In this document: positions 1-12,300 of the stretch, in pieces
How the letters are laid out: each line of letters opens with the position of its first letter
Numbering within the stretch: the first letter of the stretch is position 1
Assembly: GCF_056746865.1 (NCBI RefSeq)
Contig: NZ_CM163382.1
Length of the DNA stretch: 64,000 nt
Strand: one strand, 5' to 3'
The notes under the pieces: generated by a model
What the model was told of the DNA's origin: nothing
The model's database searches: none
The model's input: the letters and a program-made list of their open reading frames with translations, nothing else
Made by a program: the position numbers and the translations under genes

Positions 1-1411
1 CGGGACGCAATTATCTGCAAATTACACCGCCTTTTTGTTAGGGTTGGGGCGCAACCTCGGGAACTGGGGCGCAGTGTCGCTGGATGTAACGCATGCGCGC
101 AGTCAGTTAGCCGACGACAGTCGTCATGAGGGGGATTCCATTCGCTTCCTCTATGCGAAATCAATGAACACTTTCGGCACCAATTTTCAGTTAATGGGTT
201 ACCGCTATTCGACACAAGGTTTTTATACCCTTGATGATGTTGCGTATCGTCGAATGGAGGGGTACGAATATGATTACGATTATGACGGTGAGCATCGCGA
301 TGAACCGATAATCGTGAATTACCACAATTTACGCTTTAGCCGTAAAGACCGTTTGCAGTTAAATATTTCACAATCACTTAATGACTTTGGCTCGCTTTAT
401 ATTTCTGGTACCCATCAAAAATACTGGAATACTTCGGATTCAGATACGTGGTATCAGGTGGGGTATACCAGCAGCTGGGTTGGCATCAGTTATTCGCTCT
501 CATTTTCGTGGAATGAATCTGTAGGGATTCCCGATAACGAACGTATTGTCGGACTTAATGTTTCAGTGCCTTTCAATGTTTTGACCAAACGTCGCTACAC
601 CCGGGAAAATGCGCTCGACCGCGCTTATGCCTCCTTTAACGCCAACCGTAACAGCAACGGGCAAAATAGCTGGCTGGCAGGTGTAGGTGGGACCTTACTG
701 GAAGGCCACAACCTGAGTTATCACGTAAGCCAGGGCGATACCTCGAATAATGGGTATACGGGTAGCGCTACGGCAAACTGGCAGGCCACTTACGGTACGC
801 TGGGGGTCGGGTATAACTACGACCGCGATCAACATGACGTTAACTGGCAGCTGTCTGGCGGTGTGGTCGGGCATGAAAATGGTATAACGCTGAGCCAGCC
901 TTTAGGGGATACCAATGTTTTGATTAAAGCGCCTGGCGCAGGCGGTGTACGCATTGAAAATCAAACTGGCATTTTAACCGACTGGCGCGGCTATGCGGTG
1001 ATGCCGTATGCCACGGTTTATCGGTATAACCGTATCGCGCTTGATACCAATACGATGGGGAATTCCATCGATGTTGAAAAAAATATTAGCAGCGTTGTGC
1101 CGACGCAAGGCGCGTTGGTTCGTGCCAATTTTGATACCCGCATAGGCGTGCGGGCGCTCATTACCGTTACCCAGGGCGGAAAACCGGTGCCGTTTGGATC
1201 ACTGGTACGGGAAAACAGTACCGGAATAACCAGTATGGTGGGTGATGACGGGCAAGTTTATTTAAGCGGTGCGCCATTGTCTGGTGAATTACTGGTTCAG
1301 TGGGGAGACGGTGCAAACTCACGCTGCATTGCGCACTATGTATTGCCGAAGCAAAGCTTACAGCAAGCCGTCACTGTTATTTCGGCAGTTTGCACACATC
1401 CTGGCTCATAA
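1..1411 (+). CDS. sfmD: fimbrial outer-membrane usher, C-terminal part (5' end lies outside the window)
   Basis: Frame open from window start to stop at 1409-1411; usher-like C-terminal sequence; followed by sfmH, sfmF and convergent fimZ as in the E. coli sfm operon. Confidence 0.8.
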
Positions 1412-1423
1412 AGGAAATTATCA

Positions 1424-2431
1424 ATGAAGATAATCTGCAGATTATTATTGGCAATGGCATGTTTGTGTCTGGCAAACATATCCTGGGCTACTGTTTGTGC
1501 AAATAGTACTGGCGTAGCAGAAGATGAACACTATGATCTCTCAAATGTCTTTAATAGCACCAATAACCAGCCAGGCCAGATTGTTGTTTTACCGGAAAAA
1601 TCCGGCTGGGTAGGTGTGTCAGCAATTTGTCCACCCGGCACGCTGGTGAATTATACATACCGTAGTTATGTCACTAACTTTATTGTTCAGGAAACTATCG
1701 ATAATTATAAATATATGCAATTAAATGATTATCTATTAGGTGCGATGAGTCTGGTTGATAGCGTGATGGATATTCAATTCCCTCCGCAAAATTATATTCG
1801 TATGGGAACAGATCCTAACGTTTCGCAAAACCTTCCGTTCGGGGTGATGGATTCTCGTTTGATATTTCGTTTAAAGGTTATTCGTCCCTTTATTAACATG
1901 GTGGAGATCCCCAGACAGGTGATGTTTACCGTGTATGTGACATCAACGCCTAACGATCCGTTGGTTACACCTGTTTATACCATTAGTTTTGGTGGCCGGG
2001 TTGAAGTACCGCAAAACTGCGAATTAAATGCCGGGCAAATTGTTGAATTTGATTTTGGTGATATCGGCGCATCGTTATTTAGTGCGGCAGGGCCGGGGAA
2101 TCGACCAGCTGGTGTCATGCCGCAAACCAAGAGCATTGCGATCAAATGTACGAATGTTGCTGCGCAGGCTTATTTAACAATGCGTCTGGAAGCCAGTGCC
2201 GTTTCTGGTCAGGCGATGGTGTCGGACAATCAGGATTTAGGTTTTATTGTGGCCGATCAGAACGATACGCCGATCACGCCTAACGATCTCAATAGCGTTA
2301 TTCCTTTCCGTCTGGATGCAGCTGCGGCAGCCAATGTCACACTTCGCGCCTGGCCTATCAGTATTACCGGTCAAAAACCGACCGAAGGGCCGTTTAGCGC
2401 GCTGGGGTATTTACGCGTCGATTATCAATGA
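1424..2431 (+). CDS. sfmH: fimbrial adhesin-like subunit
   Basis: 335-aa ORF with N-terminal signal peptide, position after the usher gene. Confidence 0.8.
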   Translation: MKIICRLLLAMACLCLANISWATVCANSTGVAEDEHYDLSNVFNSTNNQPGQIVVLPEKSGWVGVSAICPPGTLVNYTYRSYVTNFIVQETIDNYKYMQLNDYLLGAMSLVDSVMDIQFPPQNYIRMGTDPNVSQNLPFGVMDSRLIFRLKVIRPFINMVEIPRQVMFTVYVTSTPNDPLVTPVYTISFGGRVEVPQNCELNAGQIVEFDFGDIGASLFSAAGPGNRPAGVMPQTKSIAIKCTNVAAQAYLTMRLEASAVSGQAMVSDNQDLGFIVADQNDTPITPNDLNSVIPFRLDAAAAANVTLRAWPISITGQKPTEGPFSALGYLRVDYQ

Positions 2432-2441
2432 GGTACGGAGA

Positions 2442-2957
2442 ATGAGAAGAGTGCTCTTTAGCTGTTTCTGCGGGCTACTGTGGAGTTCCAGTGGATGGGC
2501 AGTTGACCCTTTAGGAACGATTAATATCAATTTGCACGGTAACGTTGTTGATTTCTCCTGTACCGTAAACACAGCGGATATTGATAAGACGGTAGATTTA
2601 GGCAGATGGCCTACGACACAACTACTGACCGCTGGCGATACCACGGCACTCGTCCCTTTTAGCCTGCGGCTGGAGGGATGTCCTCCGGGTTCAGTCGCGA
2701 TTTTATTTACGGGAACGCCGGCATCCGATACCAATCTGCTGGCTCTGGATGATCCCGCAATGGCACAAACCGTCGCCATCGAATTACGTAATAGCGATCG
2801 CTCCCGGCTCGCACTGGGGGAGGCGAGCCCGACTGAGGAAGTAGATGCAAATGGCAATGTCACACTAAACTTTTTTGCCAATTATCGAGCGTTAGCCAGC
2901 GGTGTTCAGCCAGGTGTGGCGAAAGCGGATGCGATATTTATGATCAATTATAATTAA
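2442..2957 (+). CDS. sfmF: minor fimbrial subunit
   Basis: ATG at 2442 preceded by GGAG; 171-aa product with signal peptide; longer ORF 2247-2957 rejected as upstream extension. Confidence 0.8.
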   Translation: MRRVLFSCFCGLLWSSSGWAVDPLGTININLHGNVVDFSCTVNTADIDKTVDLGRWPTTQLLTAGDTTALVPFSLRLEGCPPGSVAILFTGTPASDTNLLALDDPAMAQTVAIELRNSDRSRLALGEASPTEEVDANGNVTLNFFANYRALASGVQPGVAKADAIFMINYN

Positions 2958-2959
2958 TA

Positions 2960-3592
2960 TTATATTAATTCATATAATTTGGCGTAGTCGATAAGCTCTA
3001 CAATTGAATGCAATCCTAGCTTGCCATAAATATTAGATTTATGCGCACTAACTGTTTTATTGCTAAGTAATAACTTATCGGCAATTTCTTTATTAGATAA
3101 TCCGCTGACCAGATAACGTAATATCGTCACTTCACGATTAGATAGCACAGTGATCGTTGAACTATTCGTGCTACATTTATTGCTTTTTATATAGTTGAGC
3201 GTTTCGCTGGGAAAAAAAGTGTATCCGGAGAGGATCATCTGAACGGCATGAAAAATATCATTCTGATCATTGCATTTACTGACAAAACCGTTAGCACCAG
3301 CTTGTATCGCTCTGCCAGCATAAAAGCATTCTGATTTCGATGATAAAAATAATACTTTCACTGTGCTCTGGATTTGTTTGATCCTTTTCAGGAAGGTAAA
3401 ACCGTCTGTTCCGGGCAAGTCTATATCCATAATGATTAAATCAACAGGACGGGTTCGGAGATAATCGATGGTTATGCGATAATCATCCGTTTTCAGGACA
3501 ATTTGCAATTCACTGTTTTTTTGCAACAGAACTTCAATAGACATTCTGATGATAGGATGAGTATCCATAATGATCACCGACGTTGGTTTCAT
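2960..3592 (-). CDS. fimZ: LuxR-family two-component response regulator
   Basis: Start taken at MKPTSVIIMD (receiver domain with DLIIMDIDLPGTDG) and C-terminal LuxR HTH; ORF track gives a longer upstream extension. Confidence 0.85.
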   Translation of the reverse strand: MKPTSVIIMDTHPIIRMSIEVLLQKNSELQIVLKTDDYRITIDYLRTRPVDLIIMDIDLPGTDGFTFLKRIKQIQSTVKVLFLSSKSECFYAGRAIQAGANGFVSKCNDQNDIFHAVQMILSGYTFFPSETLNYIKSNKCSTNSSTITVLSNREVTILRYLVSGLSNKEIADKLLLSNKTVSAHKSNIYGKLGLHSIVELIDYAKLYELI

Positions 3593-6566: not shown

Positions 6567-7247
6567 TCATCGCCATTGCTCCCCAAATACAAAACCAATT
6601 TCAGCCAGTGCCTCGTCCATTTTTTCGATGAACTCCGGCACCATCTCGTCAAAACTCGCCATGTAATTTTCATCCCGCTCAACCACGACATAATGCAGGC
6701 CTTCACGCTTCATTCGTGGGTCATAGTTGGCAAAGTACCAGGCATCTTTTCGCGTCACCCACATGCTGTACTGCACCTGGGCCATGTAAGCCGACTTTAT
6801 GGCCTCGAAACCACCGAGCCGGAATTTCATGAAATCCCGGGAGGTAAACGGGCATTTCAGTTCAAGGCCGTTGCCGTCACTGCATAAACCATCGGGAGAG
6901 CAGGCGGTGCGCATACTTTCGTCGCGATAGATGATCGGGGATTCAGTAACATTCACGCCGGAAGTAAACTCAAACAGGGCTCTGGCGTCGTTCTCGTACT
7001 GTTTTCCCCAGGCCAGCGCCTTAGCATTAACTTCCGGAGCCACACCGGTGCAAACCTCAGCCAGCAGGGTGTGGAAGTAGGACATTTTCATGTCAGGCCA
7101 CTTCTTTCCTGAGCGGGGCTTTGCTATCACGTTGTGAACTTCTGAAGCGGTGATGACGCCGAGCCGTAATTTGTGCCATGCATCATCCCCCTGTTCGACA
7201 GCTCTCACGTCGATCCCGGTACGCTGCAGGATAATGTCCGGTGTCAT
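6567..7247 (-). CDS. exo: lambda-type exonuclease (Red alpha)
   Basis: 226-aa product recognised as near-identical to lambda Exo ([25 protein letters not shown]...). Confidence 0.95.
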
Positions 7248-8029
7248 GCTGCCACCTTCTGCTCAGTGGCTTTCTGTTTCAGGAATCCAAGAGCTTTCAC
7301 TGCTTCGGCCTGTGTCAGTTCTGACGATGCGCGAATGTCGCGGCGAAATATCTGGGAACAGAGCGGCAATAAGTCGTCATCCCATGTTTTATCCAGGGCG
7401 ATCAGCAGAGTGTTAATCTCCTGCATGGTTTCATCGTTAACCGGAGTGATGTCGCGTTCCGGCTGACGTTCTGCAGTGTATGCGGTATTTTCGACAATGC
7501 GCTCGGCTTCATCCTTGTCATAGATACCAGCAAATCCGAAGGCCAGACGGGCACACTGAATCATGGCTTTATGACGTAACATCCGTTTGGGATGCGACTG
7601 CCACGGTCCGGTGATTTCTCTGCCTTCGCGGGTTTTGAATGGTTCGCGGCGGCATTCATCCATCCACTCGGTAACGCAGATCGGATGATTGCGGTCCTTG
7701 CGGTAAATCCGGCATGTGCAGGATTCATTGTCCTGCTCAAAGTCCATACCATCAAACTGCTGGTTTTCATTGATGATGCGGGACCAGCCATCAACGCCCA
7801 CCACCGGAACGATGCCATTCTGCTTATCAGGAAAGGCGTAAATTTCTTTCGTCCATGGATTAAGGCCGTACTGGTTGGCAACGATCAGTAATGCGATGAA
7901 CTGCGCATCGCTGGCATCACCTTTAAATGCCGTCTGGCGAAGAGTGGTGATCAGTTCCTGTGGGTCGACAGAATCCATGCCGACACGTTCAGCCAGCTTC
8001 CCTGCCAGCGTTGCGAGTGCTGTACTCAT
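7244..8029 (-). CDS. bet: recombination protein Bet (Red beta)
   Basis: 261-aa product recognised as lambda Bet; 4-bp overlap with exo. Confidence 0.95.
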
Positions 8030-8034
8030 CCGTT

Positions 8035-8331
8035 TTATACCTCTGAATCAATATCAACCTGGTGGTGAGCAATGGTTTCAACCATGTACCGGATGTGTTC
8101 TGCCATGCGCTCCTGAAACTCAACATCGTCATCAAACGCACGGGTAATGGCTTTTTTGCTGGCCCCGTGGCGTTGCAAATGATCGATGCATAGCGATTCA
8201 AACAGGTGCTGGGGCAGGCCTTTTTCCATGTCGTCTGCCAGTTCTGCCTCTTTCTCTTCACGGGCGATCTGCTGGTAGTGACGCGCCCAGCTCTGAGCCT
8301 CAAGACGATCCTGAATGTAATAAGCGTTCAT
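8035..8331 (-). CDS. gam: RecBCD inhibitor Gam (98-aa short form)
   Basis: [21 protein letters not shown]... matches lambda GamS. Confidence 0.9.
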
Positions 8332-8406
8332 GGCTGAACTCCTGAAAATGGCTGTGAAAAAATCGCCCGCGGAATGCCAGGCTGATTCGGAAAACAGGAA
8401 AGGGGA

Positions 8407-8697
8407 TTAGTGATTCAGACCGTTGCCGCGTCCGTCGAGAAAAACTTCCACGAGCAAGTCACGGGTATAAGTGCGCTCAATGCCGCGATGCAGATAAAGT
8501 CGTCCGCGTAAATTAGCTGATGCAGTCCAGGTACCATCTTTGCGTTTGACCAGCATTCCTGGCATGACCGCACCGCGATTAACGGTCTGCGTTCCGTAAT
8601 GTTGATGAACCATAAAAACTCCTGCCCGTAAGCTGGGCTGCTGAACATATAAAGACTTCTGCGCGTATTCAGGCGGTGGATGGCCGCCGGTTGTCAT
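8407..8697 (-). CDS. hypothetical protein, first gene of leftward early operon
   Basis: 96-aa ORF directly downstream of the putative pL/OL region; an alternative 77-aa frame (8415-8648) overlaps. Confidence 0.35.
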   Translation of the reverse strand: MTTGGHPPPEYAQKSLYVQQPSLRAGVFMVHQHYGTQTVNRGAVMPGMLVKRKDGTWTASANLRGRLYLHRGIERTYTRDLLVEVFLDGRGNGLNH

Positions 8698-8879
8698 AAC
8701 TAAGCCGCCTCGTTGAAGCGACTAAGGTATGAAATGTTGAGTTGATTTCAGCTGGTCACACCGACGTTCACGCGTCCGTTTCATCCCTCGCACTCCCCGA
8801 AGCCTGCTGAAATTCAAGCTGCGGATCTAAGCGGTCATCGCAACGGTGAATCAGGTAGTTGCCGTATCGTTGTGTTGTT

Positions 8880-8960
8880 GCGATGAACTTATTTAAAACT
8901 ATAGTTGTTTTATCGTCAACAACAAAAGTTGTTTTATTGGTTGTTTTAGATATAACTGGT
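8880..8960 (-). promoter_or_regulatory. leftward early promoter/operator region (pL/OL analogue)
   Basis: Palindromes GTTGTTTTATCGTCAACAAC and AACAACAAAAGTTGTT overlapping a minus-strand TTGACG-17-TTAAAT promoter-like sequence. Confidence 0.55.
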
Positions 8961-9054
8961 TGTATTTAGGATGGATTTATTTTGTGACTTGAATCGCATA
9001 GCGATAACTGAAGCGAGGTTATGGTGGTTTTTTTAACGGTGTGTGTGATGAGGG

Positions 9055-9087
9055 GAGGGCAAAAGAAAACCCGGCACGGTGGCCGGG
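9055..9087 (-). terminator. rho-independent terminator closing the repressor operon
   Basis: Minus-strand stem CCCGGC-CACCGT-GCCGGG followed by TTTTCTTTT, 9 bp past the stop of the 310-aa gene. Confidence 0.7.
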
Positions 9088-9095
9088 TAGCATCA

Positions 9096-10028
9096 CTATT
9101 CGATTTTTTTAACCATGTAGTTACGTCGTGATGTTCCTAATCTTTCATTGTGAATCTCAGAAACGCTTACTACGAGCGATATTCGTTCACCAACTTTATA
9201 TTTACTTTGAATTTCTCCTAACATATCAATCGGATAAGAAGCCTTTATTTTTCCAAGCTCGCTTGCAATCTCCAATTTCCCGTACATGGATAAAATAGCA
9301 AGTTCGCCTGATATATGCTCATCCGGTAGCTGAATGACCTTCGTTAAAGCTAAGCGAGCATTCAGTTTTTTTATATCTTCTGAAGAAATTGACACTTGTC
9401 TGGTACCATCACTTAAAGGTCCAATCCAAGTAAGATCAAAGTTAAGACTATATTTTTCGCACTCATTTATGATGTTTTTTAGGTTAGCTGTTGATTGCGA
9501 ACCAATTTCGGCAATTTTAGCCGTGAATGTTTCTTCATCAATGGATGAGAGTAGTGCAAAAATCTCCTTAACAGCATGACTGGATACTGTTTCGATGAGC
9601 TCGCAAGAACCAGTAGAAAAAGTAACACCTAACTTCGTCGAACCTGGACGCAAGTCTGCCAATCTCATGTCTAATGATTTTTTAACATCAATCGGCACAC
9701 GACTAGAATCTTTCCCAGATCCAAGTCGGTAAACTGCTTTCTGTACAAGGGATGCGAGATTACCTGAAATTACAGATAGAATATCTAACGGAATAGACCC
9801 GAAATCGACCAAAACACCTTTTAATCTCAACTCCATGAAATCACGTAAAGGATGTTGGTTATCGATTGCACGTTGTCTCTCTCGGAGATCGCTCAGATGG
9901 GAGTCAAGTGATCTAAATATAATGTCATCAGCAAATGATCTCCCCTTATTTTGAGCAAGCAGATCCACATCGCGTTGAATGAACGCAATTCGCTCCTTGA
10001 GGGAGTTGAATGTTTTTTCTTCGCTCAT
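9096..10028 (-). CDS. hypothetical 310-aa protein, second gene of repressor-linked cargo operon
   Basis: AT-rich ORF, start overlaps upstream gene stop by 4 bp; no recognisable motif; occupies the rexAB-equivalent position. Confidence 0.7.
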   Translation of the reverse strand: MSEEKTFNSLKERIAFIQRDVDLLAQNKGRSFADDIIFRSLDSHLSDLRERQRAIDNQHPLRDFMELRLKGVLVDFGSIPLDILSVISGNLASLVQKAVYRLGSGKDSSRVPIDVKKSLDMRLADLRPGSTKLGVTFSTGSCELIETVSSHAVKEIFALLSSIDEETFTAKIAEIGSQSTANLKNIINECEKYSLNFDLTWIGPLSDGTRQVSISSEDIKKLNARLALTKVIQLPDEHISGELAILSMYGKLEIASELGKIKASYPIDMLGEIQSKYKVGERISLVVSVSEIHNERLGTSRRNYMVKKIE

Positions 10029-10498
10029 AACATTACCCTCACGAGGCCTTTAGGATTCTCCTTCCGATCAAAACCAAACCACCCTCTCCAGTAACTTCGC
10101 CTTTCACTATAATCGATTTCTGGATGATTTTCAGGCAGCAAAAGAACGTCAATGCTGTAGTTTTCTTTAATAAAATCTCTATTTAACAATGAGCTGACCA
10201 ATGGCATCAGCGTGTTTGGCAAAGAGTTTAGGGCCAAATAATCGACGACCACGAGTATATCTATGTCATCAGGTTCAGGTTTCTCTGTAGTGAATGAACC
10301 ATCGATCCACACTTCAGAGAAACATAGACACTGCTGATTAACAAGTTTAAATTGCTCAATAAGCTGTATAAAATTACAGTATAGCATACTTCTTCTAACG
10401 GATTTTGGGAAGGTGTCGACACAAAGAGACTTGATGCCATCACTATCCATATCATGAAATCCTGCTGTAAGAAGAGGTGGGAAGCTAGGCTTTTCCAT
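10025..10498 (-). CDS. nucleotidyltransferase-fold (minimal NTase-like) protein, first gene of cargo operon
   Basis: Motif WIDGSFTTEKPEPDDIDILVVVD fits the G-S...D-x-D signature of Pol-beta-type NTases; 82 bp downstream of cI on same strand. Confidence 0.65.
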   Translation of the reverse strand: MEKPSFPPLLTAGFHDMDSDGIKSLCVDTFPKSVRRSMLYCNFIQLIEQFKLVNQQCLCFSEVWIDGSFTTEKPEPDDIDILVVVDYLALNSLPNTLMPLVSSLLNRDFIKENYSIDVLLLPENHPEIDYSERRSYWRGWFGFDRKENPKGLVRVML

Positions 10499-10579
10499 CC
10501 TAAGTCCTTGTTTATGCCATATAGTGTTCTATTTAATATTCTTGAAAAGAGTGTGCCTTAAAAAGCTACAGGCTAATTA

Positions 10580-11269
10580 TTAACCATGCTTCCTGTACGT
10601 CTGCGGCATGCTCCCAATAACCTTACCGAAGATGAACACCCGGTTCATCTCGTCTTTCTCGATCGGGTCCCACGGTGAGTAGCTTTTGTTATCAGAGATG
10701 ACCAGCAGCTTATCCTTCATCATTTGCAGGCGCTTTACATGGGCTGTGTCGTCGTACAGAAACGCATAGATACCATCACCGTCGAAAGATTTAACTGTGA
10801 TATCAACGAACAGCAGATCACCTGGTTCGATCGTTCCTGACATGCTGTCACCACGCACGTTAATGATGCGGATATTTTCCGCCTTCCTACCATCGAACAT
10901 GTGACGAGCATCGTCAAACGAGTACTCAACCGAGCGTAGAACTTCTACAAACTCACGGTTGATGACTCCCGGCCCAGCACTGACTTCTATATCAAGAACG
11001 TCAATCTTGAAGTATTTGGAATGGCTGACAGTTGATTGTATTGGTTGCACTGTACTGTCTGACATATTTCCAACGCCAGAAGATAACCATTCTGCGCGCA
11101 CACCCAAAGCGTTCGCGATCTCCACGATTTTAGTTGTTTGATTAGCTTTCCCTGTTTCGATTTTCTGAATAGCAGCCTGGCTAACCCCGACCAAATCCCC
11201 AAGCGCCTTTTGTGTAAGGCCTCGCGCTAATCTGGCTTCTTTAAGTCTTTCTGAGAGTGTTGTTTTCAT
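10580..11269 (-). CDS. CI-type prophage repressor (HTH_XRE plus S24 LexA-like peptidase domain)
   Basis: Start at MKTTLSERLKEARLARGLTQKALG; C-terminal GDSMSGTIEPGDLLFVD...KRL autocleavage-domain pattern; divergent from cro-like gene. Confidence 0.85.
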   Translation of the reverse strand: MKTTLSERLKEARLARGLTQKALGDLVGVSQAAIQKIETGKANQTTKIVEIANALGVRAEWLSSGVGNMSDSTVQPIQSTVSHSKYFKIDVLDIEVSAGPGVINREFVEVLRSVEYSFDDARHMFDGRKAENIRIINVRGDSMSGTIEPGDLLFVDITVKSFDGDGIYAFLYDDTAHVKRLQMMKDKLLVISDNKSYSPWDPIEKDEMNRVFIFGKVIGSMPQTYRKHG

Positions 11270-11373
11270 AGTCCAAATGTACAACCAAGGTTTTATTCCA
11301 TCAAACGAAAATGGTTGTTGACTAAAAACAACCATAGTTTTAATCTTGATTCAAATTAACCACGGAGGTTGTT
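11270..11373. promoter_or_regulatory. OR-like operator/promoter region between repressor and cro-like gene
   Basis: Palindrome ATGGTTGTTGACTAAAAACAACCAT overlapping a rightward TTGACT -35; GGAGG RBS before cro-like ATG. Confidence 0.6.
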
Positions 11374-11604
11374 ATGAACCCAGCTATCAAAACAGCGATC
11401 AATATCGTTGGTTCACAAAAGAAACTGGGCGCTGCTTGCGAAGTTTCACAGCAGGCCGTCTATAAGTGGCTTCACAACAAAGCAAAGGTATCCCCTGAAC
11501 ATGTCGGCAGCATTGTTACGGCTACTGGTGGAGTAGTGAAGGCATACCAGATTCGCCCGGATCTTCCGAAGTTGTTTCCACACACCGAAAAGAACGCAGC
11601 TTAA
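11374..11604 (+). CDS. Cro/YdaS-like small DNA-binding regulator
   Basis: 76-aa product, divergently transcribed from repressor; resembles Rac YdaS-type cro analogues. Confidence 0.65.
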   Translation: MNPAIKTAINIVGSQKKLGAACEVSQQAVYKWLHNKAKVSPEHVGSIVTATGGVVKAYQIRPDLPKLFPHTEKNAA

Positions 11605-11673
11605 ATTTCCATTTCACGCTCTTTAACAATAAGCAATCAACTTAACAGTCAATTCAAACTAAAGGAGTCAATT

Positions 11674-12213
11674 ATGCAACCACTTCCATACCAACAGACT
11701 AGCGGATTTAGCCCGACTGCGGTGATAAATCGTTCTCAAACAAAACAGGTGCCAGGCCACGAAAAAATCCGTGATGCCGTCCGCGCCTGGTCGGCTGTAG
11801 ATAATCAGGATGTCGTTGCCACACTCATTGTGAATGAGTATCGGGAGCAGGGCGGCGGCACCATCGATTTCCCTGATGATGTCAGCCGTGCACGCCAGAA
11901 GCTGTTCCGCTTCCTCGATAACAAATTCGATTCTGAAAAATACCGAAATAACGTGCGTGAACTGACCCCGGCAATTCTGGCGGTACTACCGCTGGAATAT
12001 CGCGGTTACCTGGTTGAGCAGGATAGCTTCATGGCTAGGTTGGCTGAAATGGAAAAGGAACTCAGTGAGGCAAAACAGGCTGTCATTCTCAACGCACCAC
12101 GCCACCAGAAACTGAAGGAAATTAGTGAAGGTATTGTATCGATGTTTCGTGTGGACCCAGATCTGGCTGGTCCATTGATGGCGATGGTTACTACCATGCT
12201 GGGGGCGATATGA
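11674..12213 (+). CDS. YdaT-like protein (CII position)
   Basis: 179-aa ORF after cro-like gene; sequence pattern reminiscent of Rac YdaT family. Confidence 0.45.
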   Translation: MQPLPYQQTSGFSPTAVINRSQTKQVPGHEKIRDAVRAWSAVDNQDVVATLIVNEYREQGGGTIDFPDDVSRARQKLFRFLDNKFDSEKYRNNVRELTPAILAVLPLEYRGYLVEQDSFMARLAEMEKELSEAKQAVILNAPRHQKLKEISEGIVSMFRVDPDLAGPLMAMVTTMLGAI

Positions 12214-12300
12214 CAGGTTCAGAAATGGCGAAAGCCGGTCTGCTGGAACAGAACCGACTTTCAGGTGCAAATCGTAACACACTCATTGCGGGAGGAATTA

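Follow-up and report, generated by a model that had tools for sequence, protein, structure and literature searches.

Candidate 434-type operators of a common immunity type among lambda-like prophages of Escherichia coli

Background

When the control regions of a prophage hold inverted repeats that can be paired in more than one way, which pairing would its repressor read? The question is raised by a locus in a 64,000-nt stretch of one strand of contig NZ_CM163382.1 (assembly GCF_056746865.1), called the window in what follows, whose positions serve as coordinates throughout. From 6.5 to 14 kb the window is the early region of a lambda-like prophage, in which the repressor gene cI and the gene cro diverge from a gap that bears putative rightward operators (OR), with homologues annotated alike, and a second control region with putative leftward operators (OL) lies on the far side of cI. 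A preliminary description had proposed that three palindromes built on an AACAAC/GTTGTT half-site are repressor operators, that they set the immunity specificity of the phage and that they differ from the operators of lambda. From the computed pattern, its statistics, its conservation and the co-variation of the proteins we infer binding, promoter positions and a regulatory logic, and we put at about 0.8 the probability that the region is a lambda-like prophage immunity switch in which a CI dimer would bind 16-bp dyads of the type known from phage 434. The parts of the locus on which the argument turns are the following.

8885-8975 (control stretch about 8885-8980): immunity-specific, A/T-rich OL segment, the stretch that is swapped in phage PhiR30_1
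10580-11269, minus strand: cI, 690 nt, 229 aa, with HTH_3 and Peptidase_S24 domains
Between cI and cro: intergenic region of 104 bp with divergent genes on either side
11374-11604, plus strand: cro, 76 aa, of the YdaS/P22_Cro type (Pfam YdaS_toxin, 4e-17)

Half-sites in the two control regions

All three palindromes are present in the DNA: GTTGTTTTATCGTCAACAAC at 8904-8923 (GTTGTT-N8-AACAAC, without mismatches), AACAACAAAAGTTGTT at 8918-8933 (AACAAC-N4-GTTGTT) and ATGGTTGTTGACTAAAAACAACCAT at 11311-11335, a 25-bp palindrome with 9-nt arms and a 7-nt spacer that does overlap the -35 box of the rightward promoter (PR), whose TTGACT lies inside it at 11318-11323. By itself the hexamer GTTGTT is mildly enriched across the window (52 copies vs 39.6 expected), and it clusters, with four copies in the OL segment and three in the cI-cro intergenic region. 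A fifth copy, at 8874-8879, sits in a flank that is common with PhiR30_1 (..GTTGTGTTGTTGCGAT); because this flank is shared, that copy is not immunity-specific and is probably no operator half-site.

Dyads of the form AACAAC-N4-GTTGTT with up to two mismatches occur nine times in the 64 kb, five of them in the two control regions, which together span 200 bp, and four in the remaining 63.8 kb. In 20,000 dinucleotide-preserving shuffles of the control regions such dyads averaged 0.074 and never exceeded 3, short of the five observed. The alternative geometries with N7 and N8 spacers have 7 and 6 hits, respectively, in the whole window, of which one each falls in the control regions. That the half-site is common to the OL-like and OR-like regions, as had been claimed, is thus borne out by clustered dyads and by the comparative evidence given below. 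The low GC content of the control regions (25-33%) and the weak enrichment of the hexamer would suit a motif that arose by chance in A/T-rich, low-complexity intergenic DNA, but the shuffles never matched the observed dyad count, the half-sites are kept while neighbouring DNA drifts, and in PhiR30_1 the motif is replaced together with the N-terminal domain of CI. We regard a chance origin as effectively refuted by these three lines of evidence.

A 16-bp unit and its register

When the half-sites are laid out with a position weight matrix, the recurring unit is the 16-mer (A/T)A(C/A)AAC-N4-GTT(G/T)T(T/A), and its dyad core ACAAC-N4-GTTGT has the 434 layout of 5 + 4 + 5 bp. The matrix was built on five core sites, with a sixth dyad at 11358-11373 left out of training, and these six are the highest-scoring distinct 16-mers of the whole window. 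The candidates, with the promoter of the cI transcript abbreviated as PRM, are listed here.

8894-8909: OL1 candidate, TAAAAC-TATA-GTTGTT, two mismatches to the dyad, matrix rank 3 in 64 kb
8918-8933: OL2 candidate, AACAAC-AAAA-GTTGTT, perfect dyad with no mismatches, top matrix score
8940-8964, plus strand: orphan right-type half-sites, GTTGTT at 8940-8945 and GTTGTA at 8959-8964, with no partner at N4
11280-11295: OR3 candidate, TACAAC-CAAG-GTTTTA, overlapping the -10 and spacer of the predicted PRM
11304-11319: OR2 candidate, AACGAA-AATG-GTTGTT, one strong and one weak half-site
11327-11342: OR1 candidate, AACAAC-CATA-GTTTTA, between the -35 and -10 of the predicted PR
11358-11373: possible fourth operator, AACCAC-GGAG-GTTGTT, one mismatch, matrix rank 5, score 14.5

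Measured start to start, OL1 and OL2 are 24 bp apart, OR3 and OR2 24 bp, and OR2 and OR1 23 bp. Laid out in this way, the palindrome at 8904-8923 consists of the right half of OL1 and the left half of OL2, and the 25-bp palindrome at 11311-11335 of the right half of OR2 and the left half of OR1, so that each is the junction of two adjacent 16-bp sites and not a single operator. The spacer within a site is invariably 4 across six phage types, as against 7, 8 or 9 between sites. The OR arrays begin with a left-type half and end with a right-type half, and the 16-mer layout leaves no half-site over, whereas pairing across the long palindromes leaves two orphans per OR array. In Klebsiella phage ST101-KPC2phi6.1 the ATGG/CCAT extension of the 25-bp palindrome is gone, and OR1 is still an intact 16-mer. 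Because of the constant spacer, the ends of the arrays and the homology with 434, we conclude that the 16-mers, and not the N7 and N8 palindromes, are very probably the repressor sites. Of the preliminary description, the half-site and the operator reading hold, as does AACAACAAAAGTTGTT exactly as it was drawn; the register of the other two palindromes does not, and OL1, OR3 and the weak half of OR2 had not been among its sites.

Had the original register been right, GTTGTT-N8-AACAAC and ATGGTTGTT-N7-AACAACCAT would each bind one dimer and AACAAC-N4-GTTGTT would be a third kind of site. It can be said for such pairing that 8904-8923 and 11311-11335 are both perfect inverted repeats and that the OR palindrome places 9-nt arms on the PR -35, arms which are conserved in the population sample described below. 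Its spacer is inconstant, however (8 vs 7 here, and 9 in Stx1 and 4C10-type relatives), where N4 is constant; its arms face outward with their centres about 13-14 bp apart, opposite to the orientation and the 5 + 4 + 5 geometry of 434; and it strands half-sites at both array ends and allows one site per control region. With the loss of the ATGG/CCAT extension in the Klebsiella phage added to these points, we consider that register improbable.

A different role for the 25-bp palindrome would be to fold, as RNA or DNA, into a hairpin that might serve as a terminator or attenuator in the cI-cro gap. A scan for terminator-like structures flags it on both strands, and RNA folding gives -10.5 and -8.5 kcal/mol (z-scores -3.8 and -3.2). 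The palindrome holds the PR -35, however, and lies upstream of the predicted PR start, so that RNA made from PR would not include it; a terminator on the opposite strand would halt RNA polymerase on its way to cI. Conservation of the stem is lacking, as in the Klebsiella phage it reaches -5.3 kcal/mol (z = -1.4). The half-sites also recur at OL and OR3, where there is no such hairpin, and Rfam gave no match. We therefore rejected a hairpin role as very unlikely, chiefly on the weak Klebsiella stem and the position upstream of the PR start, and retained the reading of the palindrome as the junction of OR2 and OR1.

Conservation of half-sites and drift of centres

Sequence variation was examined in a same-immunity sample of 10 loci, from six phages and four E. 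coli chromosomes, chosen for having the most divergent OL hits. Variable columns amounted to 0/60 in the half-sites, 1/20 in the centres and 22/120 at other control positions (Fisher p = 1.3e-4, an indicative and not a rigorous value given that the sampled loci are closely related). The sole varying centre position is 11336, in OR1; among the remaining variable columns are 8912 and 8913, between OL1 and OL2, and 8943 (G to T), within the third GTTGTT.

The more distant Klebsiella phage ST101-KPC2phi6.1, with a cI about 75% identical at the nucleotide level, differs from the window at 1/60 half-site positions, 6/20 centre positions and 11/35 positions elsewhere (p = 1.1e-5, likewise indicative). 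Its OL1 has the same half-sites with the centre changed from TATA to CATA, its OL2 reads AACAAC-AATA-GTTGTT, its OR3 TACAAC-CATG-GTTTTA and its OR1 TACAAC-TAAG-GTTTTA, and its OR2 is identical. In Salmonella phage UPF_BP1, OR3 is TACAAC-CAAG-GTTTTG, and AACAAC-CAAA-GTGTTT stands at the place equivalent to OR2. That the centres drift as fast as the spacers between sites is what an uncontacted, 434-like centre predicts.

The repressor and Cro proteins

CI matches two Pfam domains, HTH_3 (5e-13) and Peptidase_S24 (1.2e-18, the LexA-like type, whose self-cleavage RecA stimulates), and it has UmuD matches in the PDB. Searches of the PDB with phmmer returned the 434 repressor domain (1per, E 4.5e-9; 1r63, 1.8e-8), 434 Cro (2.7e-7) and the designed 434 derivative dh434 (1sq8, E 1.7e-9), and residues 5-68 align without gaps to the DNA-binding domain of 434 repressor, the best solved relative. 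Opposite Gln28, Gln29 and Gln33 of 434, the base-contacting residues of helix 3 in its crystal structures, CI has Q31, A32 and K36, and the first of the three alone is kept; Gln28 contacts adenine 1 in 434. Because Gln29 is replaced by Ala and Gln33 by Lys, the chemistry by which ACAAC would be recognized is, to judge from the residues, not simply that of 434, and the prophage would have a specificity of its own and no 434 immunity.

Cro matches P22_Cro (8e-5) in addition to YdaS_toxin, and HTH_3 below the cut-off (2.4e-4); it is not of the 434-Cro type. The recognition helices of the two proteins are nevertheless alike, VSQQAVYKWL in Cro and VSQAAIQKIE in CI. The Pfam names 'YdaS_toxin' and 'YdaT_toxin' look misleading here, as the proteins that carry them stand where cro and cII belong in a lambdoid switch that looks functional.

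The longest open reading frame of cI, 251 aa, takes its ATG from the 25-bp palindrome, whose right arm ends in CAT (11333-11335), and runs across OR1 to OR3, and the PhiR34_1, PhiR5_1 and Turner records annotate a cI of 756 nt. RefSeq and the 434 homology support a start at MKTT, position 11269, which gives the 690-nt gene.

A natural swap and the co-variation of helix and half-site

From kil across the accessory genes and as far as the C-terminal half of cI, PhiR30_1 and the window share about 97% identity, and it is at the operators and the DNA-binding domain that the two part. PhiR30_1 and 4C10 are alike in retaining the flanks, the cargo site and the C-terminal domain of CI and in having a different N-terminal domain of CI and a different Cro. 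In PhiR30_1 other DNA stands in place of exactly the stretch from 8885 to about 8975, between flanks common to both, ..GTTGTTGCGAT on the one side and TTTTGTGACTTG on the other. The dyads in this DNA are AATAGC-TATT-GCTATT and AATACT-TATC-GCTATT, and the OR of PhiR30_1 has AACATG-TTTT-GCTATT and AATACG-CATT-GCTATT. The AACAAC motif was absent from the control regions of PhiR30_1, and the AATAGC motif from those of the window. The operators thus co-segregate with the DNA-binding domain of CI, which is how an immunity region is defined.

Across four immunity types, with 434 as the outgroup, the recognition helices co-vary with the half-sites, and in every relative other than 434 there are three dyads of the form 6-N4-6 at OR and two at OL.

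Window prophage and Klebsiella phi6.1: CI VSQAAIQK, Cro VSQQAVYK, half-site ACAAC
Salmonella UPF_BP1: CI VSQAAIQK, Cro VSQAAVQK, half-site ACAAC
Stx1 phage 06-3462: CI VSQPAIQK, Cro VSQPAVHK, half-site TATAAC
4C10 and PhiR30_1: CI VAQPTIWR, Cro VAQPTVWR, half-site AATAGC
434: CI TTQQSIEQ, Cro VKQQSIQL, half-site ACAAG/T

The earlier proposal that the half-site tracks immunity specificity is upheld by the natural swap in PhiR30_1 together with this co-variation.

The mosaic is finer than a classical immunity region, in that the S24 domain, the cargo site and the leader of the leftward promoter (PL) are common to different immunity types. Two blocks are swapped, a segment of about 90 bp at OL and a block made up of the cI N-terminal domain, OR and cro, and one mosaic junction lies in the hinge of cI, at about 11031, near ..SHSKYFKIDVLD.

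The block containing the cI N-terminal domain, OR and cro (11030-11610) was found in 1523/5426 complete E. coli genomes (about 28%), in 1329 of them at 99% identity or more and in up to 4 copies per genome, and the OL segment (8860-9000) in 1520/5426. No paper characterising this immunity type was found in the searchable literature. We tentatively suggest, at somewhat under even odds, a wider interpretation: that an unstudied immunity type in about 28% of E. coli belongs to a graded series of at least four specificities (ACAAC, TATAAC and AATAGC, with the ACAAG of 434 as outgroup), in which the near-identical helices of a 434-like CI and a YdaS-type Cro of another structure change in lock-step with the half-site and so would form a readable code for the specificity of 434-type helix-turn-helix domains, the layout being unusual in its two OL sites and in a fourth operator, over the cro ribosome-binding site, that co-varies as well. 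The map given here is a testable one (five to six sites, their register and their promoters) for one of the commonest prophage immunity types of E. coli, and it may be of use in predicting homoimmune prophages, correcting the annotation of cI starts and building orthogonal repressor/operator parts. The series of helices and half-sites is in addition a small natural data set on how specificity changes in 434-type domains. The textbook picture of the lambdoid switch is unchanged, and the locus is of note for its prevalence and its tidy co-variation series.

Predicted promoters and switch logic

Promoters were placed by hand from TTGAC(T/G) -35 boxes, conservation in the Klebsiella phage and analogy.

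8891-8919, minus strand: predicted PL, -35 TTGACG at 8919-8914, 17-bp spacer, -10 TTAAAT at 8896-8891
11276-11304, minus strand: predicted PRM, -35 TTGATG at 11304-11299, 17-bp spacer, -10 TACATT at 11281-11276
11318-11346, plus strand: predicted PR, -35 TTGACT at 11318-11323, 17-bp spacer, -10 TAATCT at 11341-11346

PL and PR are colinear and of one design, with GTTGTTGAC..AAAACAAC.ATAGTTTTAA on both, and all three promoters are retained in the Klebsiella phage (PL TTGACT-17-TTAAAT, PR TTGACT-17-TATTCT, and PRM TTGCCG-17-TAAATT followed by 6 nt and ATG). The candidate operators are set against them as in lambda: OR1 and OL1 occupy the promoter spacer and touch the -10, OL1 sharing 3 bp with that of PL, and OR2 and OL2 each overlap a -35 by two bases (those of PR and PL, respectively), with OR2 also adjoining the PRM -35. 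The predicted PRM start is the A of the cI ATG (11269), so the cI mRNA would be leaderless, as in lambda.

On this map a CI dimer would bind the (A/T)A(C/A)AAC-N4-GTT(G/T)T(T/A) dyads. CI on OR1 and OR2 would occlude RNA polymerase and turn off cro and the rightward genes; from OR2, next to the PRM -35, it could also activate its own leaderless transcript. OR3, over the PRM -10, would serve negative autoregulation and be a target of Cro, and OL1 and OL2 would likewise cover PL, which runs leftward to kil, gam, bet and exo. Cro, with another scaffold but a near-identical recognition helix, would read the same half-sites.

It might be asked whether the sites are real but are read mainly by Cro or by the YdaT-family 'cII', with CI recognizing something else. 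The helix of Cro, VSQQAVYKWL, follows the half-site no less closely than does that of CI, and sequence alone cannot assign the sites to one protein or the other. The CI helix, however, co-varies identically, the 434-like CI domain fits the 5 + 4 + 5 geometry, and there is no alternative conserved dyad in OL or OR. To our knowledge, moreover, CI and Cro share operators in every characterised lambdoid switch. Assignment mainly to Cro or 'cII' is in our view quite improbable, and we keep to the reading of the 16-bp dyads as CI operators that Cro would share.

The candidate dyad at 11358-11373 is less certain than the five core sites. It covers the Shine-Dalgarno sequence of cro, 31 bp from OR1 and at about +5 to +20 of the PR transcript, where it may add repression. 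The Klebsiella phage and UPF_BP1 have counterparts of it, and so do 4C10 and PhiR30_1, in their case built on the motif of their own type (AATACC-AATA-GGAATT); in the Stx1 phage no counterpart was found. Its left half is polymorphic (11361), which counts against a functional site, and GGAGGTTGT also precedes lambda cro, so that the match may in part be ribosome-binding-site context. We put the odds that this dyad is functional at roughly even. A gap of 31 bp is also seen in the lambda imm434 record (1240-1307), where the third 434 OL site is 31 bp from the second as against 23 bp from first to second, and the two gaps may share a cooperative spacing of three helical turns.

Several points weigh against the switch as drawn here. 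Two of the three base-contacting glutamines of 434 are replaced in CI; OR2 has a poor left half (AACGAA); the conservation of the half-sites by itself cannot tell the 16-mer register from that of the long palindromes; and the close relationship of the 10 sampled loci limits the weight of the Fisher tests. A default sigma-70 scan at its thresholds did not call PR, PL or PRM, because their -10 hexamers are weak. No paper with binding, footprint or reporter data for this immunity type was found in the searchable literature. Finally, a full OL3 was not found at 8934-8985 by matrix and mismatch scans, the best 16-mer scoring 3.6 as against at least 13.4 for the core sites. We rejected an OL3 call, as there were orphan half-sites alone, a weak best 16-mer and a polymorphic position (8943); the orphans at 8940 and 8959 may be a weak OL3, or A/T-rich DNA upstream of PL, or have no role.

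Relation to 434, lambda, Rac and other phages

A 434 site is described in one published account as 14 bp long, with outer 5 + 5 bp and an inner 4 bp that are not contacted (PMC1636474). In the lambda imm434 record, OR contains ACAAGAAAAACTGT, ACAAGATACATTGT and ACAAGAAAGTTTGT, and OL a further three sites. The dyads ACAAC-N4-GTTGT have the same geometry and orientation, with ACAA outermost. OL2 here matches the 434 pattern ACAA-N6-TTGT exactly, as the sole exact copy in the window, and OL1, OR1, OR2 and OR3 are each one base off. The two systems likewise have a variable central 4 bp and three OR sites at a pitch of about 23 bp, and the counterpart of Gln28 is kept as Q31. They differ in the fifth base, G or T in 434 and C here (ACAAC); in flanking A/T, which here extends the unit to 16 bp; in Cro, which here is of the YdaS/P22_Cro type and is no homologue of 434 Cro; in the PR -35, which lies between OR3 and OR2 in 434 and between OR2 and OR1 here, as in lambda; and in OL, with three sites there and two clear ones here.

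Operators of lambda are 17-bp sites of the TATCACCGC type, and those proposed here are unrelated to them in sequence and length; the claim that the half-site is unlike that of lambda agrees with this comparison. Also different are the N-terminal domain of CI, which here is XRE/HTH_3 and 434-like, the absence of N between PL and kil, the YdaT-family 'cII' and an OL with two full sites. The architecture is nonetheless like that of lambda in its divergent cI and cro, its S24 self-cleavage domain, its tripartite OR at 24 and 23 bp with OR2 on the PR -35, OR1 in the spacer and -10 and OR3 over PRM, its leaderless-looking cI transcript, its terminator and accessory genes after cI at the position of rexAB, and its exo-bet-gam-kil genes in the PL operon. 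We conclude that the locus is very probably a lambdoid switch of the ordinary kind, whose operators are 434-type but new in specificity.

The comparison with the Rac prophage that the preliminary description had suggested was negative. The racR-ydaS-ydaT region resembles the present one in its YdaS and YdaT families (Pfam) and its divergent repressor and cro-like genes, but RacR is without an S24 domain, and the racR-ydaS intergenic region has TTAGGC-type repeats and no AACAAC dyad.

The relatives compared in the phage collection (ST101-KPC2phi6.1, UPF_BP1, 06-3462, 4C10, 4A7, Perceval and PhiR30_1) have CI N-terminal domains that are 54-74% identical and a YdaS-type Cro; no published operator data were found for them. 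The Klebsiella and Salmonella phages, which share ACAAC and the helix SQAAIQK, may be homoimmune with the window prophage, whereas the Stx1 phage (TATAAC) and 4C10/PhiR30_1 (AATAGC) differ in the half-site, with matching changes in the helix.

Neighbouring genes and other features

The remaining features of the early region are given below in the order of their coordinates.

6567-7247, minus strand: exo
7244-8029, minus strand: bet
8035-8331, minus strand: gam
8407-8697, minus strand: kil-like gene
9069-9088, minus strand: terminator-like hairpin (7-bp stem with 6 GC pairs, then a T-run) that would end the transcript of cI and cargo genes (PRM) before OL
9096-10498, minus strand: pair of accessory genes, flanked by the OL terminator and cI
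11674-12213: YdaT-family 'cII', downstream of cro and followed by O- and P-like replication genes

No N-like gene was found in the interval from PL to the kil-like gene. The PL leader (8698-8886, minus strand, 190 nt) is conserved across different immunity types and opens with a 10-bp stem in which 8877-8886 pairs with 8835-8844; over its full length its folding was no better than that of shuffles (z = -1.3). A search of 8300-12300 against Rfam at a permissive threshold gave no match, and blastn, used to look for the leader again downstream of PR (put or nut type), yielded nothing beyond short non-significant matches. Just past cro, 13 bp from its stop codon, an exact GCTCTTTAACAA occurs at 11618-11629 (CGCTCTTTAACAA from 11617) as the sole exact copy in the window; this sequence is the boxA consensus of rrn and lambdoid nut sites, and no obvious boxB hairpin follows it here.

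The accessory pair at 9096-10498, at the position of rexAB in lambda, encodes a 310-aa protein without a Pfam match and a 157-aa DUF6932 protein, and the pair matches the PADLOC candidate defence system PDC-M63 (M63B 4e-42, M63A 7e-43). Among phages and chromosomes of the same immunity the slot is either empty or holds other cargo, which includes HipA/HipD, GevT/GevA (an ASCH and a hypothetical protein), a lipoprotein, DUF6414, and a PP2C phosphatase with a Ser/Thr kinase. The slot between the OL terminator and cI is a hotspot for cargo and defence genes.

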